Assembly: GCA_964586775.1 (NCBI GenBank)
Contig: CAZPJD010000061.1
Location: forward strand, 2,183 to 66,182
DNA from: an uncultured bacterium
GTDB lineage: Bacteria; Lernaellota; Lernaellaia; JACKCT01
DNA length: 64,000 nt
Reading direction: 5' to 3'
In this document: positions 10,785-63,298 of the stretch, piece after piece
Layout of the letters: every line of letters begins with the position of its first letter
Position numbering within the stretch: position 1 is the stretch's first letter
Notes under the pieces: model-generated
Told to the model about the DNA's origin: nothing
What the model saw: only the letters and a program-made list of their open reading frames with translations
Databases searched by the model: none
Translations under genes and position numbers: made by a program

Positions 10785-10800
10785 TCAGTGCAGATTCGAC

Positions 10801-10835
10801 GAAACGCCGGTTCTTCGGGGCCGGCGTTTTTTATT
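10801..10835. terminator. Bidirectional rho-independent terminator with an 11-bp stem and a UUCG tetraloop.
   Basis: AACGCCGGTTC-TTCG-GGGCCGGCGTT is flanked by an A-tract (GACGAAA) and a T-tract (TTTTTTATT). It serves the convergent fusA and the minus-strand secreted-protein gene. Confidence 0.6.
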
Positions 10836-11916: not shown

Positions 11917-11975
11917 CACGCACCTCCGATGACTTTGGCGCATGATACCACGTTTCGGGCGGATGTAAGGAGACT

Positions 11976-29278: not shown

Positions 29279-29377
29279 ACACGCCGCTGGCGTGGAATCC
29301 ATTCGGGGATATTGTATGATTCGCGGGTCGATATCCGACGGCCTACGGGTCGGAACGGCACTCATCGCGGACGAGAG

Positions 29378-30385
<1,008 letters not shown>

Positions 30386-43745: not shown

Positions 43746-45299
43746 TTACGGGGTTTGTCGTGCTTGAAAAAAAGAAAACTCGCCCTTCGGGGTTTTCAGG
43801 GCAATGACGTCGTAATCGGCCATTTCGGGCCGATCGACGTAGTACGGCGACGGAAAGATCGACGCGAGCGCCTTTTCGCGCGGCCACGCGCGCGGCATGG
43901 GCACCGGCGGATAGGGCAGGATGAATCGGACCTTTCGCTCGAGCGCGACCTCGGGCGCGACGACGCCGAACGAGGTGAATCGCGCCGGGTCTGCCGCGCG
44001 TCCGCGACGGGCGATCTCGACACTGTTGAGGCCCCAGGTGTCGAGTACGCGGCAGTTCGTGAAATACGCAAACGTCCCCGCCACATCCGTCGCAAGTTCA
44101 TCGCTGTCGCGGCACAAAGGCTCGAAAGCGCGGGCCATGTCGATATATCCTGCGACGAGTTCGGCGTTGAAATGGGCCTTTTTCACTTGCGCGTCCGCGT
44201 CCGATCCGATCGGCAGAATCCACTGAACGCTTACGACGCACGCCAACGCGCAAAGGACGATCGCGACGCGAAAAATCGCGGTCGTCTTCGCCCACCACAG
44301 CGAAAATCCCGCGGCCGCCATTGCGAACACCAGCGGCAGCGCGGGGGCGACGAATCGAAAGCCCATCATGGCGTCGCCGCCGACGGCCACGCTCTTTGCG
44401 AGAAACAGCCCGGCGAGGGCGCCGACGAAGACAACGGCGAGCGTGCGACGAAAGTAGAGAAGCGCCGCGCAACCGACCGCGAGGTACTTCAAGCCGAGCG
44501 CGCTATCCGCGCCGCGCAGGTACTTCACGCCTTCGGCAAGGCGCATCGAAAAGGGATACGCGGCGCTCATTTTCGCGACCACCGTGTTTGGCGTCCACGT
44601 GCCGTAGGTCGCGAACGAGGCGTCGACATACACACCGTAGATCGCGAGCGACGCGAGCATCGCCACAGCCGCGCGTCGGTCGCGTCGCCGCCAACCGTCC
44701 CAAGCCACGTAGGCGAGTCCCAGCGCGAACGGAAACATGCCATCGAAGCGCGTGATCGCCGTGAGCGCCAGCACGACGAGCCCGCCGAGCGCGTCGATCC
44801 GCCCGTCGTCGTTCGGCAGCAGACGCCACGCCGCAAACGTCACCAGCGCCGTTTCGAGCATCGTTTCGAGGCCGGAGTTGACGTGCAGCGCGAACATCGT
44901 CGCGAGGGCGGGCATAACGACGCACACCCCCTGACCGACGCGCCCCGCGCCCAGTCGGCGGGCGGCCAGCGGCGTCGTGATGAACAGACTGACGAGCGCG
45001 AAAAACGACACCACCTTCATCGCGACGAGTAGCCGATCCGCACCGATCACCGCATACATCGCGGCGCTGACCATCATCCACAGCGGATTGGAATAGCCGA
45101 TCACGGTTTCGTCGGGGCGATAGAGCGCCCTGCCCGTCTCGACCCAGTGCCGCGCGTAGGCGAACGTGATAAACGCGTCGTCCTGGGCATAAACCCAGAA
45201 CGAACGCACCTGAAACGCGGCAATCGCCGTCGCGACGATCACCAGCGCGGCGAATACCGGCCTCGCGAGCGATTCACGAGCTTCCGGCTCACTCGTCAT
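43746..45299 (-). CDS. Polytopic membrane protein, GT-C-like glycosyltransferase candidate.
   Basis: About 12 predicted TM helices with a first extracytoplasmic loop bearing YAQDDAFITFAYARHW (an acidic DD motif as in GT-C enzymes), plus a ~150-aa C-terminal soluble domain. ATG at 45299 overlaps the upstream lipoprotein stop. Confidence 0.5.
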   Translation of the reverse strand: MTSEPEARESLARPVFAALVIVATAIAAFQVRSFWVYAQDDAFITFAYARHWVETGRALYRPDETVIGYSNPLWMMVSAAMYAVIGADRLLVAMKVVSFFALVSLFITTPLAARRLGAGRVGQGVCVVMPALATMFALHVNSGLETMLETALVTFAAWRLLPNDDGRIDALGGLVVLALTAITRFDGMFPFALGLAYVAWDGWRRRDRRAAVAMLASLAIYGVYVDASFATYGTWTPNTVVAKMSAAYPFSMRLAEGVKYLRGADSALGLKYLAVGCAALLYFRRTLAVVFVGALAGLFLAKSVAVGGDAMMGFRFVAPALPLVFAMAAAGFSLWWAKTTAIFRVAIVLCALACVVSVQWILPIGSDADAQVKKAHFNAELVAGYIDMARAFEPLCRDSDELATDVAGTFAYFTNCRVLDTWGLNSVEIARRGRAADPARFTSFGVVAPEVALERKVRFILPYPPVPMPRAWPREKALASIFPSPYYVDRPEMADYDVIALKTPKGEFSFFQARQTP

Positions 45300-47757: not shown

Positions 47758-47912
47758 CAACCTCGAAAACTCGCCCCATTCGGGCGACCGAAGAATAGCG
47801 CCGCGGGCGCGATGCCGCAACGCGGGACGCCCGCCGCGATCGCGTGGTCGAGACCGACGGGATTCAGCCCGATCTTCGGCCCCGATCGGCGATTCCCGCG
47901 CGCGAAACGACG

Positions 47913-47941
47913 TTGACGCAACCACGCGGACTCCCTAATAT
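47913..47941 (+). promoter_or_regulatory. Sigma70-like promoter (TTGACG-N17-TAATAT) facing the HEAT/glycan operon.
   Basis: Read directly: -35 TTGACG at 47913-47918, a 17-nt spacer, and -10 TAATAT at 47936-47941. Confidence 0.45.
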
Positions 47942-48001
47942 TTTTCGGCTTTATCCTCGCGGCGGGCCTTGTCCCGCGATGACACGGGAAATGCGGCATC
48001 C

Positions 48002-50530: not shown

Positions 50531-50535
50531 CCGTC

Positions 50536-51423
50536 ATGACGTTGTCCCTGGTCATCGCGTGTCGCGACGGCGGCGCGACGCTCGACGCGTGTTTGCGATC
50601 GGTCGCCGCGTCCACGACGCACCCGCTCGAAGTGATCGTCGCCGATGACGGGAGCGTGGATGACTCGGCCCGCATCGCTGAGAACGCGGGCGCGCGGGTG
50701 CTGCGTCTCGCGCGACGGGGCCGCGCGGCGGCTTTGAATTCCGGAATCGACGCCGCGACGGGTGACGTGATCATGTTCACCGACGCCGATTGCGTAGTAC
50801 CCGTCGGGTGGGCCGAGCGGCTCGAATCGTATCTCGCATCGGGATTCGACGGCGTGGGCGGCAACCTGCTGCCGTCCGCGTGGACCGCCGTCGAGATCGC
50901 GAAGATCCTGCGTTACCTGCACGAGTTCGAGGGCGACTTCGAGCTGACCGGCGACTACACGCGCTGGTGCCTGAACGGCAACAACATGGCGATCAAAAAG
51001 GCGGCGCTCGACGCCGTCGGCGGATTCGACGAGGGCTATCTGCACGGCGCCGATGCCGATCTGACGCGCCGCCTGCTGCGTGCCGGCTACCGTCTTCTGC
51101 GCACGCGGGATGTCACCACGACGCACCTCAAGATCGACAACCTCGCGAGCTTTCGGCGGACTTTTTACCTGCGTGGATCGGCCGTGCGTTTTTCGATGAC
51201 CGACCGCGCATTGGGCGTGCGGGACCTGCTTTCGATGCTGGTTTCACCGCTGCGGCGCGCTCTTGCCGACTATACCCGCGTCGCCGCGATGAAACGCATG
51301 TTTCCCGCGATCGAATGGAACGCCCTGCTCGCCGCGCCGATCGCGCACGCGCTGGCCGACTGGAGCGCCGCGCGCGGGCAGCGCGACTTTCATCGCCGCT
51401 TCCGCGCCGAGGGCATGCGATGA
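50536..51423 (+). CDS. Glycosyltransferase family 2.
   Basis: GT-A motifs LSLVIACRDGG, DDGSVDDS and DADCVV are present. It starts 6 nt after the HEAT gene. Confidence 0.8.
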   Translation: MTLSLVIACRDGGATLDACLRSVAASTTHPLEVIVADDGSVDDSARIAENAGARVLRLARRGRAAALNSGIDAATGDVIMFTDADCVVPVGWAERLESYLASGFDGVGGNLLPSAWTAVEIAKILRYLHEFEGDFELTGDYTRWCLNGNNMAIKKAALDAVGGFDEGYLHGADADLTRRLLRAGYRLLRTRDVTTTHLKIDNLASFRRTFYLRGSAVRFSMTDRALGVRDLLSMLVSPLRRALADYTRVAAMKRMFPAIEWNALLAAPIAHALADWSAARGQRDFHRRFRAEGMR

Positions 51424-52865
51424 GCCTCGGGCGACGCGCGGTGCGTCAGACGCTCTGGGTCGCCGGGGGAACCTACCTCAAGACCGGCGTCAACTTCCTC
51501 GCGAACATTCTTCTCATGCGTCTCATCGCGCCGGATCAGTTCGGCATCCTCGCGATGGCGATGTTCTTTCTGACGCTCGGGCGCAAGCTCGTGGGATTCG
51601 GGTTCAATCACGCGCTCGTCCATCAACAGGAGGACCTGGATCGCCACGTCCCCACGCATCTGTGGCTTAACGTCGGGCTCGGCGGTGTGGTCGCCGCGGC
51701 GGCCGTGATTGCGCGGCCCATCGTCGCCGCCAGTTACGACGCGGCCACCGCGAACGCGCTTCTGGCGCTGGCGATCTTTGGCCTGCTCGAAAACATCGGG
51801 CACACGCCGCGTTTGTTGCTCGAAAAGGAGCTGAGGTTCGATCGTCTGATTCGTCTCGACCTCGTCAACACGGTGCTCTCGAACCTCGTGGGCATCGTCT
51901 GCGCGCTCGCGGGCTGGGGGTGGACGGCGCTCGCGGCCAAGCAGATCGCGGCTTGGGCAATTCAGACCGCCGGTACTTGGCGATTACATCCGACGCTACC
52001 CGGTTGGCGACCGTGCCTGCGGTCGGCCAGGTGGTACTGGGGGTTCGGTCTGCCGATGTGGTCGGCGGGGATCGCGACGTTCATCTCGCTTCAATTCGAC
52101 GACTTTCTTGTCGGCAGTTTTTCGGGAAACGAGGCGCTCGGCTTCTACGGCCGCGCATACGCCCTCGCCAGCTTCCCCACGGTGATGGTCACGCACATCG
52201 TCGGACGCGTGGCGTTTCCGCTCTACGCGAGCGTTCAGAATGACCGCGAAGCGCTCTCGAACGCGTTCGCGCGGGTGGTGCGCGTCATCATCACACTCAC
52301 CGCTCCGGGTGTGTTGTGGCTCGCCATCTGCGCGCCGGAGCTGGTTTCGCTCGTCTTCGGGCCGAACTGGACGGGGATGATCGTCATCCTCCAACTCCTC
52401 GTGGTCTACGCGTTTCTGCGCCCCGTCTACGACAACTGCGGAGAGCTCTTCACGGCGGTCGGCCAGCCCAAAATCGCCAGCCGCATATTGATTGCGCAGG
52501 CCGTGGCCGTGCTGATCGCGTGCCCGCCCATGACGTGGGCCTTCGGCGCCAAGGGCGCGGCGATCGCGGTGGGGGTGTCTCTCGCGGTCGGCGTCGTCCG
52601 CGCATACCAGATCGTTCCAAGGTATGTTAACTTTTCCGCGACCCGGGCATTCGGTCCCGCGACCGTCGCGGCCATGGTGGGCGTCGCGGTCGCGCTGTTC
52701 GCGGCGCGTATTCTCGGCGACGCCGGCCCGGTGGCGGTCCTCGCGATGAAGACCGTCGTGTTCGTGATCGCCGACATCCTGGTTTTGTTCGCAATGGAGG
52801 GACGTCAACTGCGCGAAGACTGGCGCGAGTTTCGGGCCGCGATGACCGGCGGAGAATCGCCTTGA
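51420..52865 (+). CDS. wzx: Wzx-type oligosaccharide flippase (MOP superfamily).
   Basis: About 12-14 TM helices with a polysaccharide-biosynthesis-protein N-terminal pattern. ATGA overlap with the GT2 stop. Confidence 0.75.
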   Translation: MSLGRRAVRQTLWVAGGTYLKTGVNFLANILLMRLIAPDQFGILAMAMFFLTLGRKLVGFGFNHALVHQQEDLDRHVPTHLWLNVGLGGVVAAAAVIARPIVAASYDAATANALLALAIFGLLENIGHTPRLLLEKELRFDRLIRLDLVNTVLSNLVGIVCALAGWGWTALAAKQIAAWAIQTAGTWRLHPTLPGWRPCLRSARWYWGFGLPMWSAGIATFISLQFDDFLVGSFSGNEALGFYGRAYALASFPTVMVTHIVGRVAFPLYASVQNDREALSNAFARVVRVIITLTAPGVLWLAICAPELVSLVFGPNWTGMIVILQLLVVYAFLRPVYDNCGELFTAVGQPKIASRILIAQAVAVLIACPPMTWAFGAKGAAIAVGVSLAVGVVRAYQIVPRYVNFSATRAFGPATVAAMVGVAVALFAARILGDAGPVAVLAMKTVVFVIADILVLFAMEGRQLREDWREFRAAMTGGESP

Positions 52866-53443
52866 GAGTGCTTGACGTCGGGTGCGGGCCGAACAAGGAG
52901 CCGGGGGCGTTCGGGGTCGATCACGAGCCCTTTGCGGGCGTCGATCTGGTGCACAATCTCGACGCGCGGCCGTGGCCGATCGCGGATTCCAGCTTCGATC
53001 GCGTGAACGCGAGCCATATCGTCGAGCATGTGGACGATCTGATCGGCTTTTTCCGCGAACTGCACCGCGTCTGCGCTCCCGGCGCCGAAATCCGCATCGT
53101 GACGCCTCACTTCACCAATCGCTGCGCCTATCTCGATCCCACGCACCGCCGGTACCTGTCGGTGCGCTTCGTCGATTTTTTCGCCGATGTTCCGCCATGG
53201 TATCCCGCGAACCGGTTTGCCGTCGCCCGCAGTTATCTCGGCGAGCACCACCACAGTTACCGGCCGCTGCTCCCGGGAATGTTCGATCTGTGCGAGGTCC
53301 GCATGACCTTTGCCCGGGTATTCCGTTGGCTCGGCGTGGAGTGGCTCGCGAATCGCAAGCCGGATTTCTACGAGTTCTTTCTGGCGTATCTCGCCCCCGC
53401 CCGGGATATCATCGCGACGCTGCGCGTGCGGAAGGAGTCGTGA
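52862..53443 (+). CDS. Small class I SAM-dependent methyltransferase.
   Basis: Motif I is VLDVGCGPN. TTG start overlapping the wzx stop (TTGA). Confidence 0.7.
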   Translation: MRVLDVGCGPNKEPGAFGVDHEPFAGVDLVHNLDARPWPIADSSFDRVNASHIVEHVDDLIGFFRELHRVCAPGAEIRIVTPHFTNRCAYLDPTHRRYLSVRFVDFFADVPPWYPANRFAVARSYLGEHHHSYRPLLPGMFDLCEVRMTFARVFRWLGVEWLANRKPDFYEFFLAYLAPARDIIATLRVRKES

Positions 53444-53444
53444 C

Positions 53445-54479
53445 TTGAGCGAGCGCCGCGTCACCAAGGGCAAAGTGAAGGTGTTTTCCAACACCACGGA
53501 GCCCGGCGTGGTCGGTCAGATCAAACGCATCGCCGACTGGCGGCATCGCGAGCCCATCGAGCTTGCTGGGACGGTCGCGCGAAAGGTGTGGCGACGCGGC
53601 GACAGGTTCCGGATGCTGCCGTTCCCGCAGGCGGTGCACATCGAGATCACGAACCGCTGCAATCTGAAGTGCGTGATGTGTCCTCATCCCACGATGTCAC
53701 GCACGCAGGGTCAGATGAGCGAAGAACTGTTCCGCAAGATCGTCGACGAGATTTCCGGGCACCGGCTGCTGCTCGAAAACGTCGCGATCATGGGCCTCGG
53801 CGAGCCGATGCTGCACACCGACTTCGAACGGCTGGTGACGATCGCCGCCGAGGCCGGCGTGCCGAATCTTTACGTCAGCACCAACGGCACCGCGCTCACC
53901 GAAAAGCGCGCGCAGCGGCTGGTGGAGGATGGCGCATTGGGCCGCCTCATCATCAGCCTCGACGGCGCGACGAAGGAGACGTACGAGGCGGTGCGTATCG
54001 GCGGCAAGTTCGACCTCGTCATGGAAAACACCGTGCGCGTCCTGCGCATCAAGCGCGCGATGGGGCGGCGCAAGCCCGTTGTGACGCTGCAAATCCTGAC
54101 CATGCCGCAAACGCGCCACGAAATCGACGACTTTGTGAACCGGTGGGAGCCGGAACTCGGCGAAGGGGATGAGATTCTCATCAAGGAGGTCGACACCTTC
54201 GGCGGCCTCGTCGACGACCTACGTCTCGATGCCGAACGGGAACCCGTTCAGCGCATCCCCTGCCGCATGCTGTGGAAGGACATGTCGATCGCGTGGGATG
54301 GTCAGGTGACCGTCTGCTGCAAAGACGTGTACTACCAACTCACCGCGGGCAACGCGAATACGCAGTCGCTCGCCGAAATCTGGAACGCGCCCAAGTGGAA
54401 TGCGTATCGCCGTCTTCACATGACCGGCGAATGGGATCGCATCCATCCCTGCGACATCTGCCGCGAATGGTACGTGTGA
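53445..54479 (+). CDS. Radical SAM enzyme with a C-terminal SPASM/twitch-like Cys cluster.
   Basis: The CxxxCxxC motif CNLKCVMC is preceded by a ~65-aa N-terminal extension. The C-terminus reads CRMLW...VTVCCKD...HPCDICREW. TTG start after AAGGAG. Confidence 0.8.
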   Translation: MSERRVTKGKVKVFSNTTEPGVVGQIKRIADWRHREPIELAGTVARKVWRRGDRFRMLPFPQAVHIEITNRCNLKCVMCPHPTMSRTQGQMSEELFRKIVDEISGHRLLLENVAIMGLGEPMLHTDFERLVTIAAEAGVPNLYVSTNGTALTEKRAQRLVEDGALGRLIISLDGATKETYEAVRIGGKFDLVMENTVRVLRIKRAMGRRKPVVTLQILTMPQTRHEIDDFVNRWEPELGEGDEILIKEVDTFGGLVDDLRLDAEREPVQRIPCRMLWKDMSIAWDGQVTVCCKDVYYQLTAGNANTQSLAEIWNAPKWNAYRRLHMTGEWDRIHPCDICREWYV

Positions 54480-55684
54480 GCGCCCAATTCGGCCATATCG
54501 TCTTCGTCACCGACGCGTTCTGGCCCGAAGTCGGCGGCGTCGAGCGCGTGAGTCTCGAACTCGCCCGCGCGTTCGTGCGTCGCGGTTTGCGGTTGACGGT
54601 CATCGCCCGCCGCGCGAGCGGGCGTCCGGATGACGAAGAGATCGACGGAATTCGAATCGTGCGTTTCGCTCCGGCAACAAGCCCGACGCCATGGGTGTGG
54701 GCGACCGGCGCCATTTCGGCGGCGAGGCGATTCCTCGACGTCGCGCGGCGCGATCGTCCGGATCTCGTGCACATGCATCTCGCGATGTCGGCGCAGGGGC
54801 CGCTGTCGGTTCTGCGACCGCGCGGGATTCCGCTCATCGCGTCCTTCTATGGTCGGTGGGATCGGGAGTTCGAAGCGGAGATCGACGACGTGCCAACGCC
54901 GCCGTGGCGGATGATCTATCACGACGCGCAGATGGCGGCGCAACGGGCAATGCAGCGACGACTGCTGACGCGCGCCGATCGCGTGGTCGCGCTCTCCGAA
55001 TTCAGCCGCCGGCAAGCCATTTCGCTCGCCCCCGGCATCGGCCACAAGCTTCGCAGGATTCCCGGCGGAATCGATCCTTTGTGTTTTTCGCTCACCGATA
55101 TGGCCCGTGGCGTTGCGCGGCCGACGACCATCGTGACGGTGCGCAGGCTCGTTCGCCGGATGGGGGTCGATCTCCTGATCGCCGCCCTGCCCGCCATCTC
55201 GCGGGAGTGTCCTGATGTGCGCCTTGTGATCGGCGGGCGTGGTCCACTGGAGGGCACGCTCCGCGAATTTGCGCGCGAGACCGGCGTCGCCGACCGAGTC
55301 GAGTTTCGCGGTTTCGTGACCGACGACGATCTACCCGCGCTCTACCGCGAGGCGGATCTTTTCGTCGTGCCCACGCGTGCGCAGGAAAACTTCGGCCTGC
55401 CCGTTCTGGAGGCCGCCGCGTGCGGCGTCGATGTCCTCGCGACGCGCGTCGGGTCTCTGCCCGAGGTCGTCGCGCTCGCGGGCGGCGAAAACGCGTGCGT
55501 CGAACCCGCCGCCGACGCCATCGCCGCGGGGGCGATTCGCGCTCTACAGCGTTCGCGCGATGATGCGTCGATCGAGCGGCGACTTCGCGAGTCGGAGCGC
55601 GTCCGTCGCGATCTGTCGTGGGACGCCGTCGCCGATTGCCACCTCGATCTGTACCGGGAGGCGCGATCGTGCGCGTGGCGGTGA
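54467..55684 (+). CDS. Glycosyltransferase family 4.
   Basis: GT-B with the EX7E region FGLPVLEAAACGVDVLATRVGSLPEVV. The start is ATG at 54467 or GTG at 54476; both overlap the radical-SAM gene end. Confidence 0.75.
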   Translation: MVRVSAQFGHIVFVTDAFWPEVGGVERVSLELARAFVRRGLRLTVIARRASGRPDDEEIDGIRIVRFAPATSPTPWVWATGAISAARRFLDVARRDRPDLVHMHLAMSAQGPLSVLRPRGIPLIASFYGRWDREFEAEIDDVPTPPWRMIYHDAQMAAQRAMQRRLLTRADRVVALSEFSRRQAISLAPGIGHKLRRIPGGIDPLCFSLTDMARGVARPTTIVTVRRLVRRMGVDLLIAALPAISRECPDVRLVIGGRGPLEGTLREFARETGVADRVEFRGFVTDDDLPALYREADLFVVPTRAQENFGLPVLEAAACGVDVLATRVGSLPEVVALAGGENACVEPAADAIAAGAIRALQRSRDDASIERRLRESERVRRDLSWDAVADCHLDLYREARSCAWR

Positions 55685-56787
55685 TCGGCCACACCTACGT
55701 GGTGGACGCGAATCGCGGCAAATGGCGCGCGCTCGCGCCGCGTTGCGAGGCGCTGCGCCTTTTCGCGCCGTCGGTCTGGCCGGAACGGGACTTTTGGACG
55801 CGCGAATGCGAACCGGCCGGGGACCTCGACGTGGTTGCGCTGCCGGCCCGGGACGCCGGGCACGCACGTCGTTGGCGATTTTCGTTCGTTAAACTGCGAG
55901 GAGAACTCTTGGCGTTTCGTCCCGACGTCTTGCACGTCGAGGCCGAGGCGGGCTCGGCGATCGCGCTGGAGGCGGCTTGGCTCTGCCGGTCCGCTCTTTT
56001 TACGCAGTTCGTGTGGGAGAATATCCCCATCGATTCCCCGTGGCGTCGAGCGCTCGCGAAATGGAACTACGCGAGAATCGATCATCTGTTTGGCGGTTCC
56101 AACGGCGCGCTGTCAGCCGCCCGTGCGGACGGATATTGCGGTGCGGCGACCGTCGTGCCGCAGGTGGGCGTCGACGTCGCCTCCGTGGATCGCACGAACG
56201 CCACCCGCGTCTTCAACGACGATCGTTTCGTCGTCGGCTTCGTCGGGCGGATGGACGCCAAGAAGGGCGTCCATGTACTGCTTGACGCGATAAGAATACT
56301 GGACGGCCAGCGCATCGGATTGGTGTTCGTCGGCGACGGGCCAGAACGCGGTATCCTTCGCGAGCGCGCGTCACGGGATGAATTGTCGGGCCAAGTGCGG
56401 TTCGTCGATCCCGTCCCGCACGATACTGTCGCGTCGTACATCAAGGGCTTCGACCTTCTCGTGTTGCCGAGTGTTTCGACGCCCGGTTGGCGCGAGCAAT
56501 TCGGGCACGTGTTGATCGAGGCGATGGCGTGCGGCGTGCCGGTGATTGGCTCGCGATGCGGAGCGATCCCCGAGGTGATCGGCGACGCGGGCGTGGTGGT
56601 GGACGAAAACGATGCGACGGCATTGGCGCGGGAAATCGCGCGTTTGATCGGCGACGCGGATGGGCGTAACAAATACGTGCTGGCAGGGCGACGTCGCGTG
56701 GAGAGCCTGTACACGGACGAAGCGGTTGCCGACGCCCTGCGTTGCGTGTGGACTTCGCTCGCGAAAGAGTCAAAACGGGATCGGTGA
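55669..56787 (+). CDS. Glycosyltransferase family 4.
   Basis: GTG is preceded by GGGAGG. Contains the EX7E-type region FGHVLIEAMACGVPVIGSRCGAIPEVI. Overlaps the upstream gene by 16 nt. Confidence 0.75.
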   Translation: MRVAVIGHTYVVDANRGKWRALAPRCEALRLFAPSVWPERDFWTRECEPAGDLDVVALPARDAGHARRWRFSFVKLRGELLAFRPDVLHVEAEAGSAIALEAAWLCRSALFTQFVWENIPIDSPWRRALAKWNYARIDHLFGGSNGALSAARADGYCGAATVVPQVGVDVASVDRTNATRVFNDDRFVVGFVGRMDAKKGVHVLLDAIRILDGQRIGLVFVGDGPERGILRERASRDELSGQVRFVDPVPHDTVASYIKGFDLLVLPSVSTPGWREQFGHVLIEAMACGVPVIGSRCGAIPEVIGDAGVVVDENDATALAREIARLIGDADGRNKYVLAGRRRVESLYTDEAVADALRCVWTSLAKESKRDR

Positions 56788-56796
56788 GTCGGCACC

Positions 56797-58281
56797 ATGA
56801 CCGAAACCACTCTCGATTCGCTGATTCGCAAGATCCAGACGCACCGCAACGCGCGCGATGTGGCCGCGGGTTTTGCGGCGTTGCTCGTGTGCTGGGCGGT
56901 GGGTCAGTCGGTGGCGCAACAGGATCTCGCCCTTCCGATCGGGCTGGCCGGCGCCGCCATCTTTGTCCTCGTCTTTTTTCGCCGCGCGTCTCTCCTGCTC
57001 CTCGCGCCGGCGGCGATGTGCGTTCCGAATATGGGCCTCGATATCCCTGGGCCGTGGGCGATCTCCATCGAAGACGCGTTCGTGATGCTGTGCTTCGCGG
57101 CGCTCGTCGCGCGCGGGATCGTCCTCGGTCGTCCGGTTTTTCCACGCGGCCTTCCGGGCATGCGCCCCATGTTCGCCTTTTGGGGCATCGCGATGCTCTC
57201 GCTCGTCAAGACGGCGACGATCTCGCGATCGAGCCTGATGCTCGTGATGAAGGACCTGATGCGCCTTTCGCTGCTCATGCTCTTCTTCGCCGTCATGGTC
57301 GATGCGATCCGCACCAAGGCGCATCTGCGAACGATCACACGCGTGCTGATCGCGCTCGCCGTGCCCATGGCTGCGGTCTCCTGGTACATCTACCTGACGA
57401 GGAGCGACTTTTTCTACACGATCCTGACGATGAAGCCCGCGTACATCTACTACAAGGGCAACATCCTGCGCATGATCTCGATCGCGGGATCGACCAGCTT
57501 CACGGGGCTTTACTACGCCGTCATCCTCGCGCTCGCGCTGAATCATCTGCCGTTCTTCCGCAACACCACCACCCGCGCCTGGGGCTACGCCATCGCCGGC
57601 CTGCTCCTCTCGTGCCTCGCGATGACCTTCAATCGCGGCACGTGGGTCGGCGTGCTCTTCGGGTATTTCCTGCTCTCGCTGGTCGGGCAACTCAATTGGC
57701 GTCGCGTGGTGGTGGCCGCGATGCTGCTCGGCGGCCTCGCGCTCATCACGAGCGCGCATTTCTTCCACCAGCTCGAGGTCGAGAACAAGCTCAACGTGCT
57801 GGTCGAGGTTTCCCGATCCTCGGGCACGACGCGCCTCGTGCGCTGGATGTCGTCGATCAACGTCATCCTCGATCAGCCGCTGCTCGGCGTCGGCTACAAC
57901 AACTACGCCTACGTTTACGGTCTGTATTCCATCGAGGAAGGCATCACGCGTCTCTACGGGTCGCCGCACAACATGTACGTCGATATCGTCACCGGCACGG
58001 GCCTCGTAGGTTTTACGGTGTTCGCGACGTGGATGTACCGGCTGTGGCGAATCCACGTCGAAAACCTGCGTGGAACGATCGACCCCGAGATGAAAATGCT
58101 CGCGGTCGGCCTTTTCCTCGCGTTCGGCATCTTTCTTGGAGCATCGGGATTCGACTCGTTCTTTTTCAAACCGCATCACACCTCGTTCATCCTGATGCTC
58201 CTCTGGGCGATGAGCACGGCTTTGTGGCGGCTAAATCGCGACGAAGACCGCAACCAAGCACGCGGCGAGGCGAAGTCGTGA
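56797..58281 (+). CDS. O-antigen ligase/polymerase family membrane protein (Wzy_C/WaaL-type).
   Basis: About 11-12 TM helices with a large periplasmic loop near the C-terminal third (the RLYGSPHNMYVDIVTGTG region, typical of Wzy_C). Confidence 0.7.
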   Translation: MTETTLDSLIRKIQTHRNARDVAAGFAALLVCWAVGQSVAQQDLALPIGLAGAAIFVLVFFRRASLLLLAPAAMCVPNMGLDIPGPWAISIEDAFVMLCFAALVARGIVLGRPVFPRGLPGMRPMFAFWGIAMLSLVKTATISRSSLMLVMKDLMRLSLLMLFFAVMVDAIRTKAHLRTITRVLIALAVPMAAVSWYIYLTRSDFFYTILTMKPAYIYYKGNILRMISIAGSTSFTGLYYAVILALALNHLPFFRNTTTRAWGYAIAGLLLSCLAMTFNRGTWVGVLFGYFLLSLVGQLNWRRVVVAAMLLGGLALITSAHFFHQLEVENKLNVLVEVSRSSGTTRLVRWMSSINVILDQPLLGVGYNNYAYVYGLYSIEEGITRLYGSPHNMYVDIVTGTGLVGFTVFATWMYRLWRIHVENLRGTIDPEMKMLAVGLFLAFGIFLGASGFDSFFFKPHHTSFILMLLWAMSTALWRLNRDEDRNQARGEAKS

Positions 58282-59282
58282 ACTCGGCGAGCCGGGAGAA
58301 CCGGTCGATTCTCGTTCACAAACCCGATCACTTGGGCGACGTGCTTTGTGCGGCGCCCGCGATCCGGCGTCTGCGCGACGCATTTCCCAACGCGCGTGTC
58401 GTCGCGTCCGCCATGTCCGGCCCGGGGCGGTTTCTGGTGGAGATGCGGCTCGCCGACGAGATTCTGGAACTGCCCGGTCCCGATTGGTGGAAGCGGCGCG
58501 GAGCGGCGGGATTTGTCGCGTCGTGCCGTCGCGTTCGTTTCGATCTGGCCGTGAATTTCCGGCATGATGCGCGCGACATTACTTCGATGGCGCTCATCGG
58601 TGCAAAGGAAGTTTGCACGTACACGCACCGACGATTCGGTTCGCGGCATTCCTTCGCGGCAGCGCCGCCTTCCGGCGACCGGGCGGAACTCCTGAACCAC
58701 CTCGCGCTCGTGCGTGCGTTAGGGATCGCGACCGATTTCGTTCCGGGCGAATTCCGAGACCGGCTCGCGCCTACCGACGTCGCGCGATTTCGACGCGACG
58801 GACGGTGGATTGCGTTCCATCCTTTCTCGCGCACGCGGGCCAAGGCGTGGCCGATCGAGCACGCGCACTCGTTTGTGCGGATGGCGATCGATCGCGGCCT
58901 TGGCGTTCGATTGATCGGCGCGCGCGAGCACGAGGGCGAATCGGAGCGGATCGGATGCGACTCCCCGTTGTGCGAGAACCTCGTTGGGCGGACCGATGTG
59001 CGCGAATTGCTTTGCTGCATCGCGGCTGCCGACGCGCTCGTTTGCGCGGACTCAGGGCCGGGTCACATTGCTCCGCTGGTCGGCACGCCGGTCGTCTCGA
59101 TCGCCAGCGGAACCAACGAGCACGCGCGCTGGGCCCCTTACGGTGCGGTCGTGCTGTCGAAACCCGTCTCATGCGCCCCATGCCATCTCGAAACGTGCCC
59201 TGTGCCCGGCCACCCGTGCATGAACGATCTCACGCCAGCCGCCGCGATGTCCGCGTTGACGCAATTGCCGGGTTTCGCATGA
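58278..59282 (+). CDS. Glycosyltransferase family 9 (heptosyltransferase-like).
   Basis: ILVHKPDHLGDVL...GPGHIAPLVGTPVVSI is the GT9 pattern. GTG start overlapping the upstream stop. The 846-aa ORF-track entry is an alternate-frame artefact. Confidence 0.75.
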   Translation: MNSASRENRSILVHKPDHLGDVLCAAPAIRRLRDAFPNARVVASAMSGPGRFLVEMRLADEILELPGPDWWKRRGAAGFVASCRRVRFDLAVNFRHDARDITSMALIGAKEVCTYTHRRFGSRHSFAAAPPSGDRAELLNHLALVRALGIATDFVPGEFRDRLAPTDVARFRRDGRWIAFHPFSRTRAKAWPIEHAHSFVRMAIDRGLGVRLIGAREHEGESERIGCDSPLCENLVGRTDVRELLCCIAAADALVCADSGPGHIAPLVGTPVVSIASGTNEHARWAPYGAVVLSKPVSCAPCHLETCPVPGHPCMNDLTPAAAMSALTQLPGFA

Positions 59283-60406
59283 CCATGCGCATCCTGCTCG
59301 ATGCCACGTGCGTGAACGACGATGCGCTCACCGGCGCGGCGCGATACGTCATCGCGCTCGTCCGCGCGCTAAGGGTCGAGCGCGGAATCGATCTTCACGT
59401 CTTCACTTTTTCGCGGCGCGCTTTTGCCGAATTTCCGGACCACGTGCGCGTATCCCGACTCGATCTCCCGCGCGTTTTGGGCCCGGTTGCGCGGGAGGCT
59501 TCACGGCGAAGATTCGTCTCGCGCGCCGCGCATAGCGGCGTCGATCTCGTCCACTACACGCTCGATCCCGCGCCGCCGATAGACGGCGTGCGATCCGTGT
59601 TGACGCTGTTCGACATGGCGCGTCGTGCGCCGAGCTTTCGCGCCGCAACGGGCGCATCGCTTCGCGCGCTCATGCGCACGCACCTGCGCTATGGCCTCGC
59701 CAAGCGAATGGACCTGCTCATCGCGACCACGCCCCATGCGGCGCGTGAAATCGCTTCGGACCTGCCATATCCGGCAGCGAAGATTCGCGTGTCGCCGATT
59801 GCGACGGATCCCGCGTTCACGCCGGGCGTTCCTGACGCGTCTGCGTTGTCCCGTCACGGGCTCGTCGCGGGCGAATACGTGCTTTTTGTCGGGCAGCTCG
59901 GGCGGCAAAAAAATGAAGACGGCTTGTTGGCCGCGTTTCGATCGGCGAAAGAGCGCAATTTGGTACCGGCGACAATGCGACTGGCACTCGCTGGTGACGA
60001 TTCGCAGGCCGCCGCGGGTACGCGGGCGGCCATTCGCAACGCGGCGAGCGTAAGCATGCTCGGCACCGTGAGCGACGACGATCTCGTTCACCTTTACCGT
60101 GGCGCGGTGTGCCTCGCACTACCGAGTTTCGTCGAGGGCTACGGGCTCCCGGTGCAGGAGGCGATGGCGTGCGGAACTCCCGCGCTCGTCTCGCGCGGGA
60201 CGTGCCTTGTCGATGTCGCGGGCGCTGGCGGCATCGCCGTCGATCCGAATAACCTCGACGGGATGCGTGACACCATCGCGAATCTCGTGAACGACCGCAA
60301 TCTGTACGAGCGGCTGTCGCGCGGGGGAATCGAGCAGTCGTCTTCGCGGACCGACGCCGAAATGGCGCGCGCACATCTGGAGGCGTACCGTGACGCACTC
60401 CGGTAG
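59279..60406 (+). CDS. Glycosyltransferase family 4.
   Basis: Contains YGLPVQEAMACGTPALVSRGTCLVDV. ATGA overlap with the upstream stop. Confidence 0.75.
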   Translation: MTMRILLDATCVNDDALTGAARYVIALVRALRVERGIDLHVFTFSRRAFAEFPDHVRVSRLDLPRVLGPVAREASRRRFVSRAAHSGVDLVHYTLDPAPPIDGVRSVLTLFDMARRAPSFRAATGASLRALMRTHLRYGLAKRMDLLIATTPHAAREIASDLPYPAAKIRVSPIATDPAFTPGVPDASALSRHGLVAGEYVLFVGQLGRQKNEDGLLAAFRSAKERNLVPATMRLALAGDDSQAAAGTRAAIRNAASVSMLGTVSDDDLVHLYRGAVCLALPSFVEGYGLPVQEAMACGTPALVSRGTCLVDVAGAGGIAVDPNNLDGMRDTIANLVNDRNLYERLSRGGIEQSSSRTDAEMARAHLEAYRDALR

Positions 60407-61451
60407 ATCCCCGCGCACGCTGGTCGTCAGTTTGCAGGGAATCGGCAACAACCTGCTCGCGTTGCCGCTCGCGTCCGCGCTGGCGCGTCGCGACGAAAGC
60501 TCCGTCTGCATGCTGGTGCGTTCGCCGCGCGTGCGCGAACTCCTGCGCATTCGGTCGGATATCGACGACGTGATCGCGCTCGACGACGAGCGAATTCGCG
60601 GTGTCGCGGGGACGGTTCGACTGCTGCGCGAACTGCGCGCGCGACGGTTCACGCGGGCCGTGCTGGCCCACCCCGCCGGTTCGCGCGCCGCCGCCCTCGT
60701 GGCCGCGGCGCGTATCGACGAGCGCGTCGCGATCGTGAGCCCGCGCATGTCGCGTGGAGCGCGTTTCCTCACGCATGGTCGGACGTACGTTCAGGGGATG
60801 CACGATCTGGAACACAACCAGTGGCTCGCCGAGATGTGCGACGCGCACATCGACCTCGCTCGCGACTGGCCGCCGCTGCGTCCTGAGCAGGGAGATGTCG
60901 AGGGCGCACGCACCTGGCTTTCCGCTCTCGGTTTCGACCCCGCCGCCCGGTACGTGGGATTTCACTCGGGCTGCGACGGCGATTTCGCCGAGAAGCGCTG
61001 GCCCGAATCGTCGTTCGCGGCGCTCGCGCGCGGGTTGCATGAAGATACGGGTCGAGCGGCCATCGTCTTCGACGGGCCGTCGGAGCTTGGTTCCGGCCGA
61101 CGCATCGCCCACCTCGCCGCATCGCCCGTCGTCGCCATGGACGGCTGGGGCGGCTTGGCGCAGGCCCTCGGGATGCTTTCTGTCTGCGACGTGTTCGTCT
61201 CCAACGATTCGGGGCTCATGAATCTCGCCGCGGCGGCCGGGGTGCCGTGCGTCGCCATCTTTGGTCCGAGCGAGGTCGCGCGAACGAGGCCCTTGGGTGG
61301 GCGTCACCGCGTGATCCACGCCAATCGCGCGTGCGTGCCCTGCTACCACCTCGGCCCGTGGAGCGGATGCATTCATCCGGCTCGCCCGTGTCTCGAAGAC
61401 GTGAGTGTCGATGTGGTGCTGCGCGCCGTGCTGGAACTGCTGCCGTCATGA
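60390..61451 (+). CDS. Glycosyltransferase family 9 (heptosyltransferase-like), second copy.
   Basis: Contains LVVSLQGIGNNLL...VSNDSGLMNLAAAAGVPCVAIFGPS. GTG is preceded by GGAGG. Confidence 0.7.
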   Translation: MTHSGRSPRTLVVSLQGIGNNLLALPLASALARRDESSVCMLVRSPRVRELLRIRSDIDDVIALDDERIRGVAGTVRLLRELRARRFTRAVLAHPAGSRAAALVAAARIDERVAIVSPRMSRGARFLTHGRTYVQGMHDLEHNQWLAEMCDAHIDLARDWPPLRPEQGDVEGARTWLSALGFDPAARYVGFHSGCDGDFAEKRWPESSFAALARGLHEDTGRAAIVFDGPSELGSGRRIAHLAASPVVAMDGWGGLAQALGMLSVCDVFVSNDSGLMNLAAAAGVPCVAIFGPSEVARTRPLGGRHRVIHANRACVPCYHLGPWSGCIHPARPCLEDVSVDVVLRAVLELLPS

Positions 61452-63298
61452 AGATTCTCTACATCGACCAGTACTACTCGAATCGACGCGGCAACTCCGG
61501 CACACGCAGCCACGAGTTCGCCCGGCGTTGGGTGCGCGATGGGCACGACGTGACGATCGTCACCACCGCGAGCGCGTATTCGCACCTCGCCGGACAGCGG
61601 CGATGGCTGCGCCGAAGCGTCGACGAGGGCATCACGGTTTGGAGCCTTCGCATCCCCTACGCGCAATCCATGGGCTACGCGCGGCGAGTCTGGTCGTTCG
61701 CGACGTTCATGGTCATGTCCACGCTGATCGGACTTCTCGTCCCGAAGCCCGACGTGGTCTTTGCCAGCAGCACGCCCCTCACCGTGGGTGTGACGGGAGC
61801 GATCGTCGCTTGGCTTCGCACGCGACCGTTCGTCTTCGAGGTTCGCGACTTGTGGCCGCGAGCGCCCATCGAGCTCGGCGCGATCCGCAACCGGTATCTC
61901 ATCCCGGCGCTCGAAGCGGTCGAGCGGTGGATCTATCGGCGGGCGGACGCCATCAACGCGCTCTCGCCGGGCATGGCGACGGGAATCATCGCCACCGGCG
62001 TCGAACCCGAGCGGGTCTCGGTCGTCTCCAATGCGTGCGACTTCGACCTGAATGCCGCGCCGCGGACGCCCCGCCCGGAAGCGAATCACCGCGTCGTCTA
62101 CGCGGGCGCGCTCGGTCCCGCCAACGACTTGGGCGATCTCATCCGCGTCGCGGGCGAGTTGCACCGACGCGGGCGGGCGGACATCGAGATCGTCATCGCG
62201 GGCGAGGGGTCGCAGGAGCCGTTGATCCGCGATCTGGTGCGACACGGTGAACTCGCCAACGTGCGTTTCGCGGGTTCGCTGCCCCGCCGCGAGGTGGGCG
62301 AGCTTCTCGCGACCGCCGACATTGCGGTCACGTGTTTTGCCCCGCTGCCCGTGCTCGCGACGAACAGCCCCAACAAGTTTTTCGATTATCTCGCGTGCGG
62401 CATTCCGCAAATCACCAACTCGCCCGGATGGCTTCGGGAGTTGCTCGAAGAGTCCGGCGCGGGCGCGTTCTGGCCGTGGGGCGACGCAGCCGCCGGCGCG
62501 GATCTCATCGAATCGCTTATCGACGACGCGCCTTGGCGCAATGTTATGTCGAAATCCGCCGCGAAGCTCGCTCAGCGTTTCGAGCGGGGCGCGCTCGCGA
62601 AGGAACTGCTGAATGTCCTGACAGGCGCAACAAAATCCCCGGTACGCGGATTATCGGTCGCATGGCAGGGCATCTTCGACCGCACTTGCGCCCTCGCGGG
62701 ACTCGCCCTGCTCTCACCCCTGCTGCTGGGTATCGCATGGATGATCCGTCGCGATGACGGCGGTCCGGTGTTCTATCGCCCGACGCGCATCGGCCTCGGC
62801 GGACAACCGTTTCGCATGTGGAAGTTCCGGACGATGACGCCCAACGCGGAAAGCTTGGGTCTCGGCCTGAATGTCGGCGAGAGCGACCCGCGCATCACGC
62901 GTGTCGGCGAGTGGCTGAGGAAGTGGTCGCTCGACGAACTCCCGCAGCTCATCAACGTCGTGACCGGCGAAATGCGTCTCGTGGGTCCCCGACCCGCCCT
63001 GCCCGGCCATGCCGAGCGTTACACGACCGAGCAGAAAGAGCGCCTGCGAGTGCGCCCGGGCCTGACCGGTTGGGCGCAGGTGAATGGACGCAACGCGCTT
63101 TCGTGGTCGCGGAAGTTGGAGTTCGACGTGTGGTACGCGCGGCATCGAAGCTTCTGGCTCGACCTGTGGATCCTGATTCGCACGGTCGGCGTGGTGGCCC
63201 GGCGCGAGGGCTTATACGAAACCGACGCGGGACTGGCGGACGATTTCAACCGGTTCGAGCCGCGCGTTCACGACGCCGCCCCGCCCGGTGGCGACTAG
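61448..63298 (+). CDS. Fusion of a GT4 glycosyltransferase with a PglC-like monotopic phosphoglycosyl transferase (Bac_transf).
   Basis: The N-terminal ~400 aa are GT4 (MKILYIDQYY...). The C-terminal ~200 aa have a reentrant hydrophobic helix (CALAGLALLSPLLLGIAWMI) and PGT motifs (GGPVFYRPTRIG, FRMWKFRTM, DELPQLINVVTGEMRLVGPRP). Confidence 0.8.
   Translation: MKILYIDQYYSNRRGNSGTRSHEFARRWVRDGHDVTIVTTASAYSHLAGQRRWLRRSVDEGITVWSLRIPYAQSMGYARRVWSFATFMVMSTLIGLLVPKPDVVFASSTPLTVGVTGAIVAWLRTRPFVFEVRDLWPRAPIELGAIRNRYLIPALEAVERWIYRRADAINALSPGMATGIIATGVEPERVSVVSNACDFDLNAAPRTPRPEANHRVVYAGALGPANDLGDLIRVAGELHRRGRADIEIVIAGEGSQEPLIRDLVRHGELANVRFAGSLPRREVGELLATADIAVTCFAPLPVLATNSPNKFFDYLACGIPQITNSPGWLRELLEESGAGAFWPWGDAAAGADLIESLIDDAPWRNVMSKSAAKLAQRFERGALAKELLNVLTGATKSPVRGLSVAWQGIFDRTCALAGLALLSPLLLGIAWMIRRDDGGPVFYRPTRIGLGGQPFRMWKFRTMTPNAESLGLGLNVGESDPRITRVGEWLRKWSLDELPQLINVVTGEMRLVGPRPALPGHAERYTTEQKERLRVRPGLTGWAQVNGRNALSWSRKLEFDVWYARHRSFWLDLWILIRTVGVVARREGLYETDAGLADDFNRFEPRVHDAAPPGGD

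Follow-up and report, generated by a model that had tools for sequence, protein, structure and literature searches.

A GT4 glycosyltransferase and a PglC-like phosphoglycosyl transferase in one chain: a candidate bifunctional enzyme closing a Wzx/Wzy-type operon of an uncultured bacterium

Does a single gene of an uncultured Myxococcota-like diderm carry both the enzyme that would start a lipid-linked glycan and the glycosyltransferase that would add the next sugar? The question is raised by an open reading frame (ORF) in the window, i.e., the whole 64,000-nucleotide stretch of DNA analysed here. A first-pass annotation had read this ORF as one polypeptide with a GT4 glycosyltransferase in front of a PglC-like monotopic phosphoglycosyl transferase (monoPGT), and had called it a rare architecture that could channel the lipid-linked intermediate. 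Judging from its sequence, we consider it fairly likely that the protein is a bifunctional monotopic PGT (Bi-PGT) closing a Wzx/Wzy-type operon, in which the PGT domain would start the glycan and the GT4 domain would add the next sugar. Fusions record enzyme partnerships. The direct succession of the two enzymes, for which this fusion and the frequent gene pairs in related loci argue, makes it easier to arrange the steps of glycan clusters that lack annotation, of which there are thousands. In public annotation, these proteins are named only "sugar transferase" or "glycosyltransferase" and thus one of the two activities is lost.

One continuous gene at the end of an 11-gene operon

The fused gene lies at 61448..63298 on the + strand, as do all features described below, and encodes 616 aa plus stop in a single ORF; the coordinates and the domain order given by the first-pass annotation were correct. 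The ORF is free of stops over 61247..63298. Within it, the fused gene probably starts at 61448 with an ATG that shares bases with the TGA of the GT9 gene upstream (GTCATGA). With a GC3 of 0.79, the fused gene is typical for genes of the window. A terminator scan 3' of the gene found none.

Close pairs of GT4 and small PGT genes, overlapping or only a few bp apart, are common in related loci (21 of 80) and hence a single-base error could create an apparent fusion. Such an artefact, in which a sequencing or assembly error removed a stop or a frameshift between the two genes near nt 62650, is nevertheless exceedingly improbable here. At the junction, the fusion frame contains no stop while the other two frames are broken by stops, and homology runs on unbroken in this frame across the linker, the length of which is conserved. 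Moreover, a gene called in the independent Logan assembly of SRR13076506 encodes the same 616 aa with 100% identity, and about 80 protein clusters, drawn from varied samples and sources, likewise have both domains in a single ORF, some of them at 75-79% identity to the query. The junction check, the continuous homology and the second assembly rule out a missed stop or frameshift, and the fused GT4 and PGT gene is confirmed to be genuine.

The gene is the last of an 11-gene glycan operon of the Wzx/Wzy type. The ten upstream genes span 50395..61451, with several of their start codons being uncertain, and according to Pfam encode a GT2 (about 50395-51423), a Wzx flippase (about 51441-52865), a small methyltransferase (52862-53443), a radical SAM/SPASM enzyme (to 54479), two GT4 enzymes (to 55684 and 55618-56787), a Wzy_C protein (56797-58281), a GT9 (58278-59282), a third GT4 (59279-60406) and a second GT9 (60390-61451), the gene overlapped by the ATG of the fused gene. 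The operon holds six other glycosyltransferases (the GT2, three GT4 and two GT9 enzymes), and the fusion protein is the sole PGT that Pfam scans detected in it. The gene order of the operon is the same on four other contigs (L085, L086, L088, and L089). NCBIfam yielded no match at curated cut-off for the ten neighbouring operon proteins. In the labels of a broader pathway reading, which is discussed further below, the radical SAM enzyme is described as spiro-SPASM-like and the two GT9 enzymes as "heptosyltransferase-like".

Two complete domains joined by a short linker

First, we focus on the C-terminal half (aa 402-603; 62651..63256), which a profile match to PglC and Foldseek identify as a PglC-like monotopic PGT catalytic domain. 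Pfam PF02397 (Bac_transf) matches residues 409-584 (E 2.7e-64; 216.4 bits against a gathering score of 27) and this match covers profile positions 3-178 of 179. The family profile aligns with C. concisus PglC (8g1n) over residues 5-204 of 205 (E 5.6e-75). In Foldseek, the PGT half of the AF2 model matches PglC (8g1n and 8e37) with TM(target) of 0.80-0.82 and 40-41% identity. The similarity extends to other monoPGTs, with 40% identity to the catalytic domain of WcaJ and an E of about 1e-61 to WbaP structures.

The domain begins with a putative re-entrant membrane helix (aa 402-437; 62651..62758), to which hydropathy, the alignment with PglC and a helix in the model all point. It contains the strongest hydrophobic segment of the protein (KD peak of 2.14 at aa 408-435) and aligns with PglC residues 5-40 including Ser23-Pro24; the corresponding break, Ser423-Pro424, lies inside the predicted helix in the stretch LLSPLLL (aa 421-427). 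MonoPGTs are recognised by one re-entrant helix at the N-terminus that is broken by Ser-Pro, with no other TM helices, and this is the arrangement predicted for the domain. Since this helix is the lone strongly hydrophobic segment of the chain that has no other structural role, the predicted topology permits a cytoplasmic location of both domains.

Both motifs quoted in the first-pass annotation are found, FRMWKFRTM at aa 455-463 and DELPQL at aa 496-501 (62933..62950). D496 and E497 in the latter align with the Asp93-Glu94 dyad of PglC, which is catalytic in that enzyme (PMC10186338), and are invariant in 32 homologues. The PRP nucleotide-binding motif, which is named in the same study (PMC10186338), is likewise invariant and was placed by alignment with PglC (P514-R515-P516; segment 62984..62995). 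The C-terminal tail EGLYETDAGLADDFNRF (63206..63256) is the counterpart of the PglC loop that closes the aromatic box, and retains a Phe at the position of PglC F197. Three of the five residues of this box are kept in the query (Y122, W150, and F197), while Y118 is replaced by H and F154 by L, and the GLLLP loop of PglC reads GLGLNV with an insertion of 3 residues. UDP-diNAcBac-specific PGTs of the PglC sub-family are recognised by the five-residue box together with the GLLLP loop. With the box partly kept and the loop absent, UDP-diNAcBac specificity hence does not follow for the query. From the sequence of this half we infer phosphosugar transfer to Und-P, with UMP being released, as its predicted activity.

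The N-terminal half (aa 1-395; 61448..62632) is a domain of the retaining GT4 glycosyltransferases (CAZy) with a two-Rossmann GT-B fold and belongs to a WbuB/WcaI-like clade, as indicated by Pfam, the AF2 model and Foldseek. Pfam places Glyco_trans_4_4 at residues 18-195 and Glycos_transf_1 at residues 208-373, both above their gathering scores, and PF13579, PF13439, PF00534, and PF13692 all exceed their cut-offs. Glycos_transf_1 and Bac_transf thus both stand above gathering scores in one chain. The AF2 model of the GT4 half has a pLDDT mostly >90, and Foldseek matches it to MshA, BshA, WlaC (6eji), and PglA with TM(target) of 0.75-0.83. Stand-alone homologues of this half are about 410 aa long and share 45-49% identity with it. 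The best glycosyltransferase match of the query in NCBIfam is the WcaI family (NF007640), with a score of 83.5 bits that does not reach the curated cut-off of 276. An orthologous relationship with WcaI is ruled out by an identity of only 22% to the E. coli K-12 protein.

Within the GT4 half, the FEVRDLWP motif (aa 130-137; 61835..61858) is invariant across fused and stand-alone members of the clade. Instead of the EX7E motif that is canonical for GT4 enzymes, the query has T305...D313, and an SPNKFFD motif in the C-terminal Rossmann half (aa 307-313; 62366..62386) stands where the EX7E region would be. The missing EX7E might indicate that one domain is catalytically dead and acts as a scaffold or regulatory module, e.g., as a pseudo-GT that controls the activity of the PGT, and fusions of regulatory domains to monoPGTs have reportedly been described. 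We regard the loss of one activity as very unlikely, however. The replacement is found throughout the clade, stand-alone enzymes included, with N309, K310, and D313 being invariant. All of 72 non-fused homologues, presumably active enzymes, carry this replacement, which points to a trait of the clade rather than to decay. Furthermore, neither the query nor any of 39 fused homologues has lost a residue that is invariant in these 72 proteins (R20, R80, D102, F130, E131, R133, D134, W136, P137, N195, G220, N226, G252, G254, N309, K310, D313, and G339). In the PGT half, the dyad, the PRP motif and the predicted re-entrant helix are intact, and this half belongs to the only PGT of the operon.

DSSP on the AF2 model assigns helices at residues 380-394 and 402-437, so that a linker of some six residues (aa 396-401 by DSSP and alignment; 62633..62650) connects the final helix of the GT4 half to the re-entrant one. 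The length of this linker is conserved among close relatives. The model of the whole two-domain chain has a mean pLDDT of 89.9 and a pTM of 0.84. Conserved columns occur in both domains across 32 fused homologues of 36-78% identity, which indicates at the sequence level that purifying selection acts on both halves. ORF, Pfam, profile, model and Foldseek agree with the first-pass reading of one polypeptide comprising a complete N-terminal GT4 and a complete PglC-like monotopic PGT.

Fusions and gene pairs in related loci

Contrary to the first-pass annotation, the architecture itself is neither new nor very rare. About 80 protein clusters (90% identity) share the GT4-PGT domain order and are 36-79% identical to the query, and at least 32 clusters with this order are obtained when clustering at 50% identity. 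These fused relatives come from different samples and sources, the closest of them being 75-79% identical to the query, and one fused homologue is carried by a cultured strain, Alloalcanivorax profundimaris ST75FaO-1. Moreover, bifunctional monoPGTs with a glycosyltransferase at the N- or C-terminus form a named class (O'Toole, Imperiali and Allen, PNAS 2021, as relayed in passages of PMC11626204 and PMC10942596). Members of this class have been expressed and purified, including "Myxococcales bacterium GT1" (A0A7Y3BPP4), which is listed as a bifunctional monoPGT. Like them, the query has a monoPGT core and a second catalytic domain in one chain, in this case the GT4 of aa 1-395. The query is a further member of this already described class of GT-monoPGT fusions, and its architecture was already catalogued.

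At the level of genes, blastp on stop-to-stop ORFs was used to sort 80 species-level loci that carry this GT4 clade into classes. Fused single ORFs account for 7 of the 80 loci. In 21 of 80, the GT4 gene is directly followed on the same strand by a separate small PGT gene, often with an overlap of a few bp, and in another class (23 of 80) a PGT is found within 10 kb of the GT4 with other genes between. A count of about 33 fusions among the 80 loci, obtained from tblastn matches to residues 1-589 or 1-600, was rejected since most of these matches are two adjacent genes at the ORF level and 7 are fused. In the syntenic operon of one locus (L003), the two halves are separate genes, each 48% identical to the matching half of the query. 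Fusions with the reverse order, PGT-GT4, exist as well (P0076, P0209, and P0232), and NJ-parsimony gives at least 9 changes as a crude estimate of independent fusion events. The fusion recurs as a derivative of a widespread pair of translationally coupled genes, in which a GT4 gene is followed by a small PGT gene. Consecutive steps are the simplest explanation for this pairing and for fusion having occurred repeatedly in both orders. The fusion together with the frequent gene pair argues that the initiating enzyme's product is the direct substrate of this GT4 clade.

Proposed order of action and comparison with known systems

In the mechanism that we propose, a fusion that would have arisen from a GT4-then-small-PGT gene pair might provide the first two enzymes of the pathway. 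The PglC-like domain would dip into the cytoplasmic leaflet via its one re-entrant helix, and its Asp496-Glu497 dyad would convert undecaprenyl phosphate to Und-PP-sugar, with a UDP-sugar as donor of the sugar-1-phosphate. The GT4 domain, which the linker of about six residues would tether at the membrane surface to the start of the re-entrant helix, could then use a nucleotide sugar to extend Und-PP-sugar by one further residue, most likely the second. Extension of the glycan might be carried out by the GT2, the three GT4 and the two GT9 enzymes of the operon, and the methyltransferase and the radical SAM enzyme may modify it. Finally, Wzx would flip the glycan and the Wzy_C protein would polymerise or ligate it. 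We found no published enzyme activity for the sub-family of the query or for close homologues in the literature.

A hexosamine derivative of the N-acetyl or 4-amino type is the probable initiating sugar. In four related loci (L086, L088, L089, and L090), the fusion has a DegT aminotransferase and an acyltransferase as neighbours, and in L003 a PglD_N acetyltransferase adjoins the split small PGT. These neighbours hint that an amino-sugar derivative is probably the initiating sugar. Within the window, no sugar-nucleotide genes of the DegT, PglD/E/F or Fnl type were found among the ORFs scanned, a set that includes 3 ORFs without a Pfam match and leaves out some small ORFs.

In the E. coli systems of the WbuB group, D-GlcNAc is the initiating sugar. 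The GT4 enzymes of this group form the linkage to D-GlcNAc (PMC7685785), and the fucosyltransferase WcaI precedes WcaE, for which Fuc-(1->3)-Glc-PP-Und is annotated as the acceptor. By analogy with WbuB and WcaI, the second step would be the most likely role of the fused GT4. With six further glycosyltransferases in the operon, however, the sequence does not reveal which enzyme acts when, and the fused GT4 could therefore act at a later step or on another acceptor, with the fusion only recruiting it to the membrane or to an assembly complex. The distant relationship to characterised second-step enzymes, with 22% identity to WcaI, and the 23 loci in which other genes separate GT4 and PGT are in line with a later step, which we consider somewhat unlikely. 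A later step is at odds with the tight gene pairing and the repeated fusion in both orders, with the linkage to D-GlcNAc formed by the WbuB group (PMC7685785) and the position of WcaI ahead of WcaE on Glc-PP-Und, and with the short linker, which in the model puts the GT4 beside the PGT domain at the membrane.

For the preferred reading, in which the GT4 acts directly after the PGT, channelling of the lipid-linked intermediate between the two sites, as suggested by the first-pass annotation, would be plausible. A natural single-chain PGT-GT would be a convenient test object for membrane channelling of lipid-linked intermediates and could serve as a compact part for glycoengineering. A more far-reaching reading combines these elements and is unlikely to hold as a whole. 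According to it, a rigid module with two active sites would hand an Und-PP-(amino)sugar directly from the PGT to the GT4 at the membrane, and may be the committed entry of a conserved, uncharacterised 11-gene pathway in uncultured Myxococcota-like lineages. The product of this pathway could be a glycan of unusual type that contains heptose, and might serve protein O-glycosylation via the Wzy_C protein (PglL/TfpM-like) rather than O-antigen or EPS.

In Campylobacter, the first two membrane steps of N-linked glycosylation are carried out by PglC and PglA, which are separate proteins, unlike the domains of the query. The C-terminal domain of the query resembles PglC (40% identity, TM of about 0.8) and shares the DE dyad, the PRP motif, the Ser-Pro helix and the C-terminal tail, whereas the aromatic box and the GLLLP loop differ as described above. 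PglA is a GT4 acting on the product of PglC and has the same GT-B fold as the N-terminal domain of the query (TM(target) of 0.77) but only 11-12% sequence identity. WbuB and WcaI fall within the broad GT4 clade of the query, with the likeness to WbuB lying in the NCBI name of stand-alone homologues at 47% identity. In E. coli, these L-FucNAc transferases of O-antigen synthesis (WbuB) and the fucosyltransferase of colanic acid synthesis (WcaI) are stand-alone enzymes that have WecA or WcaJ as their partner PGTs.

Neisseria PglB is also a Bi-PGT and joins an initiating PGT to another enzyme of the same pathway. Its partner domain is an acetyltransferase that modifies the sugar nucleotide and acts before the PGT, whereas the partner in the query is a glycosyltransferase that would act after the PGT in the proposed model. 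The large monoPGTs WbaP and WcaJ have a catalytic domain homologous to that of the query. In contrast, their N-terminal four-helix TM bundle and PF13727 are absent from the query, which carries the soluble GT4 domain instead.

The fused gene and its two domains

The first-pass annotation read window positions 61448-63298 (+) as one polypeptide with an N-terminal GT4 glycosyltransferase and a C-terminal phosphoglycosyl transferase (PGT), which a frameshift or missed stop near nt 62650 would split into two genes. Inspection of the frames at the junction revealed no stop near nt 62650 in the frame of the fusion, and the remaining two frames are broken there. The open reading frame in the window spans 61247-63298 (+), and its likely start is ATG 61448, which shares bases with the upstream gene's TGA stop codon (…GTCATGA…) in a typical translational-coupling junction and yields 616 codons with the stop codon at 63296-63298. 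The gene product called in an independent Logan assembly of run SRR13076506 also has 616 aa and is 100% identical. In this single frame, Pfam domains of both enzymes lie above the gathering threshold: Glyco_trans_4_4 (aa 18-195) and Glycos_transf_1 (aa 208-373) in the N-terminal half, which is a complete GT-B enzyme, and Bac_transf (aa 409-584, E 2.7e-64) in the C-terminal region, where the previously noted motifs lie at aa 455-463 (FRMWKFRTM) and aa 496-501 (DELPQL).

The fused architecture is conserved. Among 5.8 billion proteins searched, about 80 clusters at 90% identity carry both GT4 domains and PF02397 (602-653 aa, 36-79% identity to the query, 95-99% query coverage), and exhaustive HMMER searching against 1.84 billion cluster representatives (50% identity) gave at least 32 full-length, single-stretch matches among the best 150. 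In an alignment of 32 fused proteins, invariant columns occur in the GT4 half (R20, SSTPL, FEVRDLWP, G220/G223/N226, G252/G254, S307-N309-K310-F312-D313) and in the PGT half (K459-R461-M463, D496-E497, P499-Q500, G513-P514-R515-P516, R548-N549), and closer relatives keep the length of the linker between them. Hence, purifying selection acts on both domains, and the fusion cannot stem from an assembly artefact. That the fusion is genuine is practically certain.

Stand-alone homologues of the GT4 half have about 407-415 aa and 45-49% identity, one of them named 'glycosyltransferase WbuB' at NCBI. The top NCBIfam glycosyltransferase match of this half is the WcaI family, at 83.5 bits vs a cut-off of 276, and E. 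coli K-12 WcaI shares only 22% identity with it. T305…D313 stands in place of the canonical EX7E motif. When 39 fused and 72 non-fused relatives were aligned, the query retained every residue invariant among the 72 non-fused proteins, and thus the T305…D313 motif is a trait of the clade rather than decay.

A profile of the fused family matches Campylobacter concisus PglC (8g1n) over its full length (residues 5-204 of 205, E 5.6e-75) and WbaP catalytic domains at about 1e-61. PglC Ser23-Pro24 of the re-entrant helix aligns with S423-P424 inside LLSPLLL, catalytic Asp93-Glu94 with D496-E497, and the PRP motif with P514-R515-P516 (residue roles: PMC10186338). The C-terminal tail of the PGT domain is likewise PglC-like (EGLYETDAGLADDFNRF). 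Five 'aromatic box' residues mark PGTs specific for UDP-diNAcBac (PMC10186338); the fusion keeps Y122, W150, and F197 of PglC and has His for Y118 and Leu for F154, and the GLLLP loop of PglC has become GLGLNV with a three-residue insertion. The fold of the PGT half is PglC-like, and specificity for diNAcBac is not established.

Predicted structure and topology

An AlphaFold2 model of the whole chain, computed from an alignment of 32 fused proteins, has a mean pLDDT of 89.9 and a pTM of 0.84. Foldseek against the PDB places the GT4 half with MshA, BshA, WlaC (6eji), and PglA (TM(target) 0.75-0.83) and the PGT half with PglC (TM(target) 0.80-0.82, 40% identity), and it returned no solved PDB entry that spans both halves. 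In the model, the last GT4 helix (aa 380-394) is followed by about six residues and then by a long helix (aa 402-437). Hydropathy reveals a single strongly hydrophobic segment of the re-entrant-helix type (aa 408-435); the remaining peaks correspond in the model to β-strands and one helix of the Rossmann folds. Both ends of the PglC re-entrant helix are cytoplasmic. With the same arrangement in the fusion, a soluble N-terminal GT4 is topologically compatible, in line with the cytoplasmic placement proposed earlier. Judging from the model and the analogy to PglC, the short tether would have to keep the GT4 next to the PGT domain on the surface of the membrane.

Class membership, frequency and origin of the fusion

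Monotopic PGTs (monoPGTs) comprise three classes, namely small, large, and bifunctional, as defined by the Imperiali and Allen laboratories (PMC11626204, PMC10942596); both papers cite a 2021 sequence-similarity-network study (O'Toole, Imperiali and Allen, PNAS). A 2025 preprint reports the purification of several bifunctional monoPGTs (Bi-PGTs), among them 'Myxococcales bacterium GT1', which it lists under the bifunctional monoPGTs. The GT4::PGT architecture is therefore already known, and the 616-aa fusion and its conserved operon are unannotated members of the Bi-PGT kind, whose relatives carry only the names 'sugar transferase' or 'glycosyltransferase' in databases. In the literature covered, the GT4-PglC-like sub-family has no published activity, no structure, and no test of channelling.

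A survey with one genome per species (GTDB) yielded 80 loci (L005-L084) that encode relatives of this GT4 clade. By tblastn, many of them match query residues 1-589 or 1-600, and ORF-level re-analysis showed that matches over both halves are often two adjacent ORFs, a GT4 and then a small PGT. A single fused ORF occurs in 7/80 loci (Alloalcanivorax profundimaris, Anaerolinea, a Prochlorococcus single-cell genome, and Rhodospirillaceae, Thermoleophilia, Peptococcaceae, and Deltaproteobacteria MAGs), and in 21 the GT4 ORF comes immediately before a distinct small PGT ORF on the same strand. In another 23 a PGT lies inside the 10-kb flanks, and 29 have no PGT in these flanks. The ORFs of the 21 adjacent pairs, for example in Acinetobacter junii CIP 64.5, Marinobacter, Rheinheimera pacifica, Psychrobacter, Chryseobacterium aahli, and Legionella, often overlap or lie a few bases apart, and such pairs are widespread among cultured members of the Gammaproteobacteria and Bacteroidota. 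A crude neighbour-joining tree built from the GT4 domains requires at least nine changes of the fused state and groups the query with other fused sequences in one coherent clade (about 24 members). Repeated changes of state and widespread gene pairs mark the fusion as a recurrent, easily reached derivative of a translationally coupled pair. The architecture, initially described as rare, is thus uncommon but, with its many clusters and a named class, not exceptional. Reverse-order fusions (PGT then GT4, 641-678 aa; P0076, P0209, P0232) also exist, as do longer variants around the same GT4 clade, P0126 and P0164 among them: GT4-PGT-cytidylyltransferase (869 aa), GT4 + ~300 aa + PGT (880 aa), and proteins with two GT4 domains (about 800-850 aa).

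Operon context and proposed pathway

The fusion is the final gene of a + strand series at about 50.4-63.3 kb, whose members overlap or sit close together. This 11-gene operon (window 50395-63298, +) encodes, in order, GT2, Wzx, a small methyltransferase, a radical SAM/SPASM enzyme, GT4, GT4, Wzy_C, GT9, GT4, GT9, and GT4::PGT, and holds no second PGT. None of the operon neighbours of the fusion reaches a curated NCBIfam cut-off; the closest family of the radical SAM/SPASM enzyme is 'spiro-SPASM', under the cut-off. It is unusual for an Und-PP/Wzx-type cluster to contain two GT9 'heptosyltransferase-like' genes together with a radical SAM enzyme. The mechanical starts of ORFs 53310-54479 and 54272-55684 overlap by about 200 bp, and domain positions suggest that the GT4 of the latter truly starts near 54480; several operon start codons are uncertain and call for proper gene calling.

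Four other contigs keep the operon order from Wzx onward and end in the fused gene, which is 58% identical in L085, 49% in L086 (Candidatus Lernaella stagnicola), 49% in L088 (a Myxococcales MAG), and 50% in L089. In the last three, an Acetyltransf_6/FemAB-like gene, a methyltransferase, and a DegT aminotransferase follow the fusion (L086 11838-14727; L088 11835-14732; L089 11838-14709). In a more distant fused clade (L090, 11974-13161), DegT and hexapeptide acyltransferase genes adjoin it. In a fifth syntenic operon (L003), the halves are separate genes, each 48% identical to the matching query half: a 410-aa GT4 occupies the corresponding position and a 203-aa small PGT, about 2 kb off on the opposite strand, adjoins a PglD_N acetyltransferase (region 10757-12011). 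These neighbours in related loci hint at a 4-amino/N-acyl hexosamine derivative as initiating sugar; among the window ORFs scanned, no DegT, PglD, or PglF-type gene was found.

In the proposed pathway, the reading with the best support, the PglC-like domain would use its Asp-Glu dyad to convert UDP-sugar and undecaprenyl phosphate (Und-P) to Und-PP-sugar, and the tethered GT4 would then attach the next sugar. Other operon glycosyltransferases would lengthen the chain, Wzx would flip it, and the Wzy_C protein would polymerise or ligate it. Both domains are probably active. D-GlcNAc is the initiating sugar in E. coli WbuB-group systems. The GT4 enzymes of this group form the L-FucNAc-α1,3-D-GlcNAc linkage (PMC7685785), and WcaI is the fucosyltransferase before WcaE, which is annotated as using Fuc-(1→3)-Glc-PP-Und as acceptor. 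By analogy with these steps, and from the gene-pair and fusion statistics, we slightly favour a GT4 that acts on the immediate PGT product. Because this GT4 is only distantly related to WbuB and WcaI and the operon holds six other glycosyltransferases, we infer this step rather than regard it as demonstrated. True kinetic channelling between PGT and GT4 is doubtful, and a rigid hand-off module as the committing step of an uncharacterised glycan pathway that contains heptose and radical SAM, perhaps serving protein O-glycosylation, is quite improbable. The original observation is confirmed and its interpretation, a coupling of the first and a later transfer, partly supported.

Outside the operon, the window is housekeeping (pheS/pheT, thrS, EF-G, a BamB-like protein, Mur ligase, RecD2). 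The EF-G protein shares no more than 76% identity with any named sequence, its closest named relatives being MAGs of Myxococcales, Myxococcota, or 'Deltaproteobacteria', which makes the host an uncultured diderm near these groups. Immediately upstream of the glycan operon lies an 853-aa HEAT-repeat protein (47969-50530, +), divergent from an 877-aa FG-GAP/ASPIC-UnbV repeat protein (45289-47925, -), and a beta-propeller (SGL/lactonase-like) gene runs downstream of the fusion from 63369 to the window end. ORFs 28304-29278, 30405-31259, 43746-45380 (-), and 19328-20143 (-) have no Pfam match at E<=1e-4 despite high GC3, and ORF 29312-30385 has a weak hexapeptide-repeat match only. Thiolase-like ORFs, one with a ChsH2-type C-terminal OB-fold domain, occupy 33-3277 (+), where ORF calls overlap and starts are unresolved. 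A 465-aa ORF (5175-6572, +) fuses Memo-like and AMMECR1 domains; downstream of it, 6652-8025 (+) encodes a MiaB/RimO-type radical SAM methylthiotransferase (UPF0004 + Radical_SAM + TRAM).
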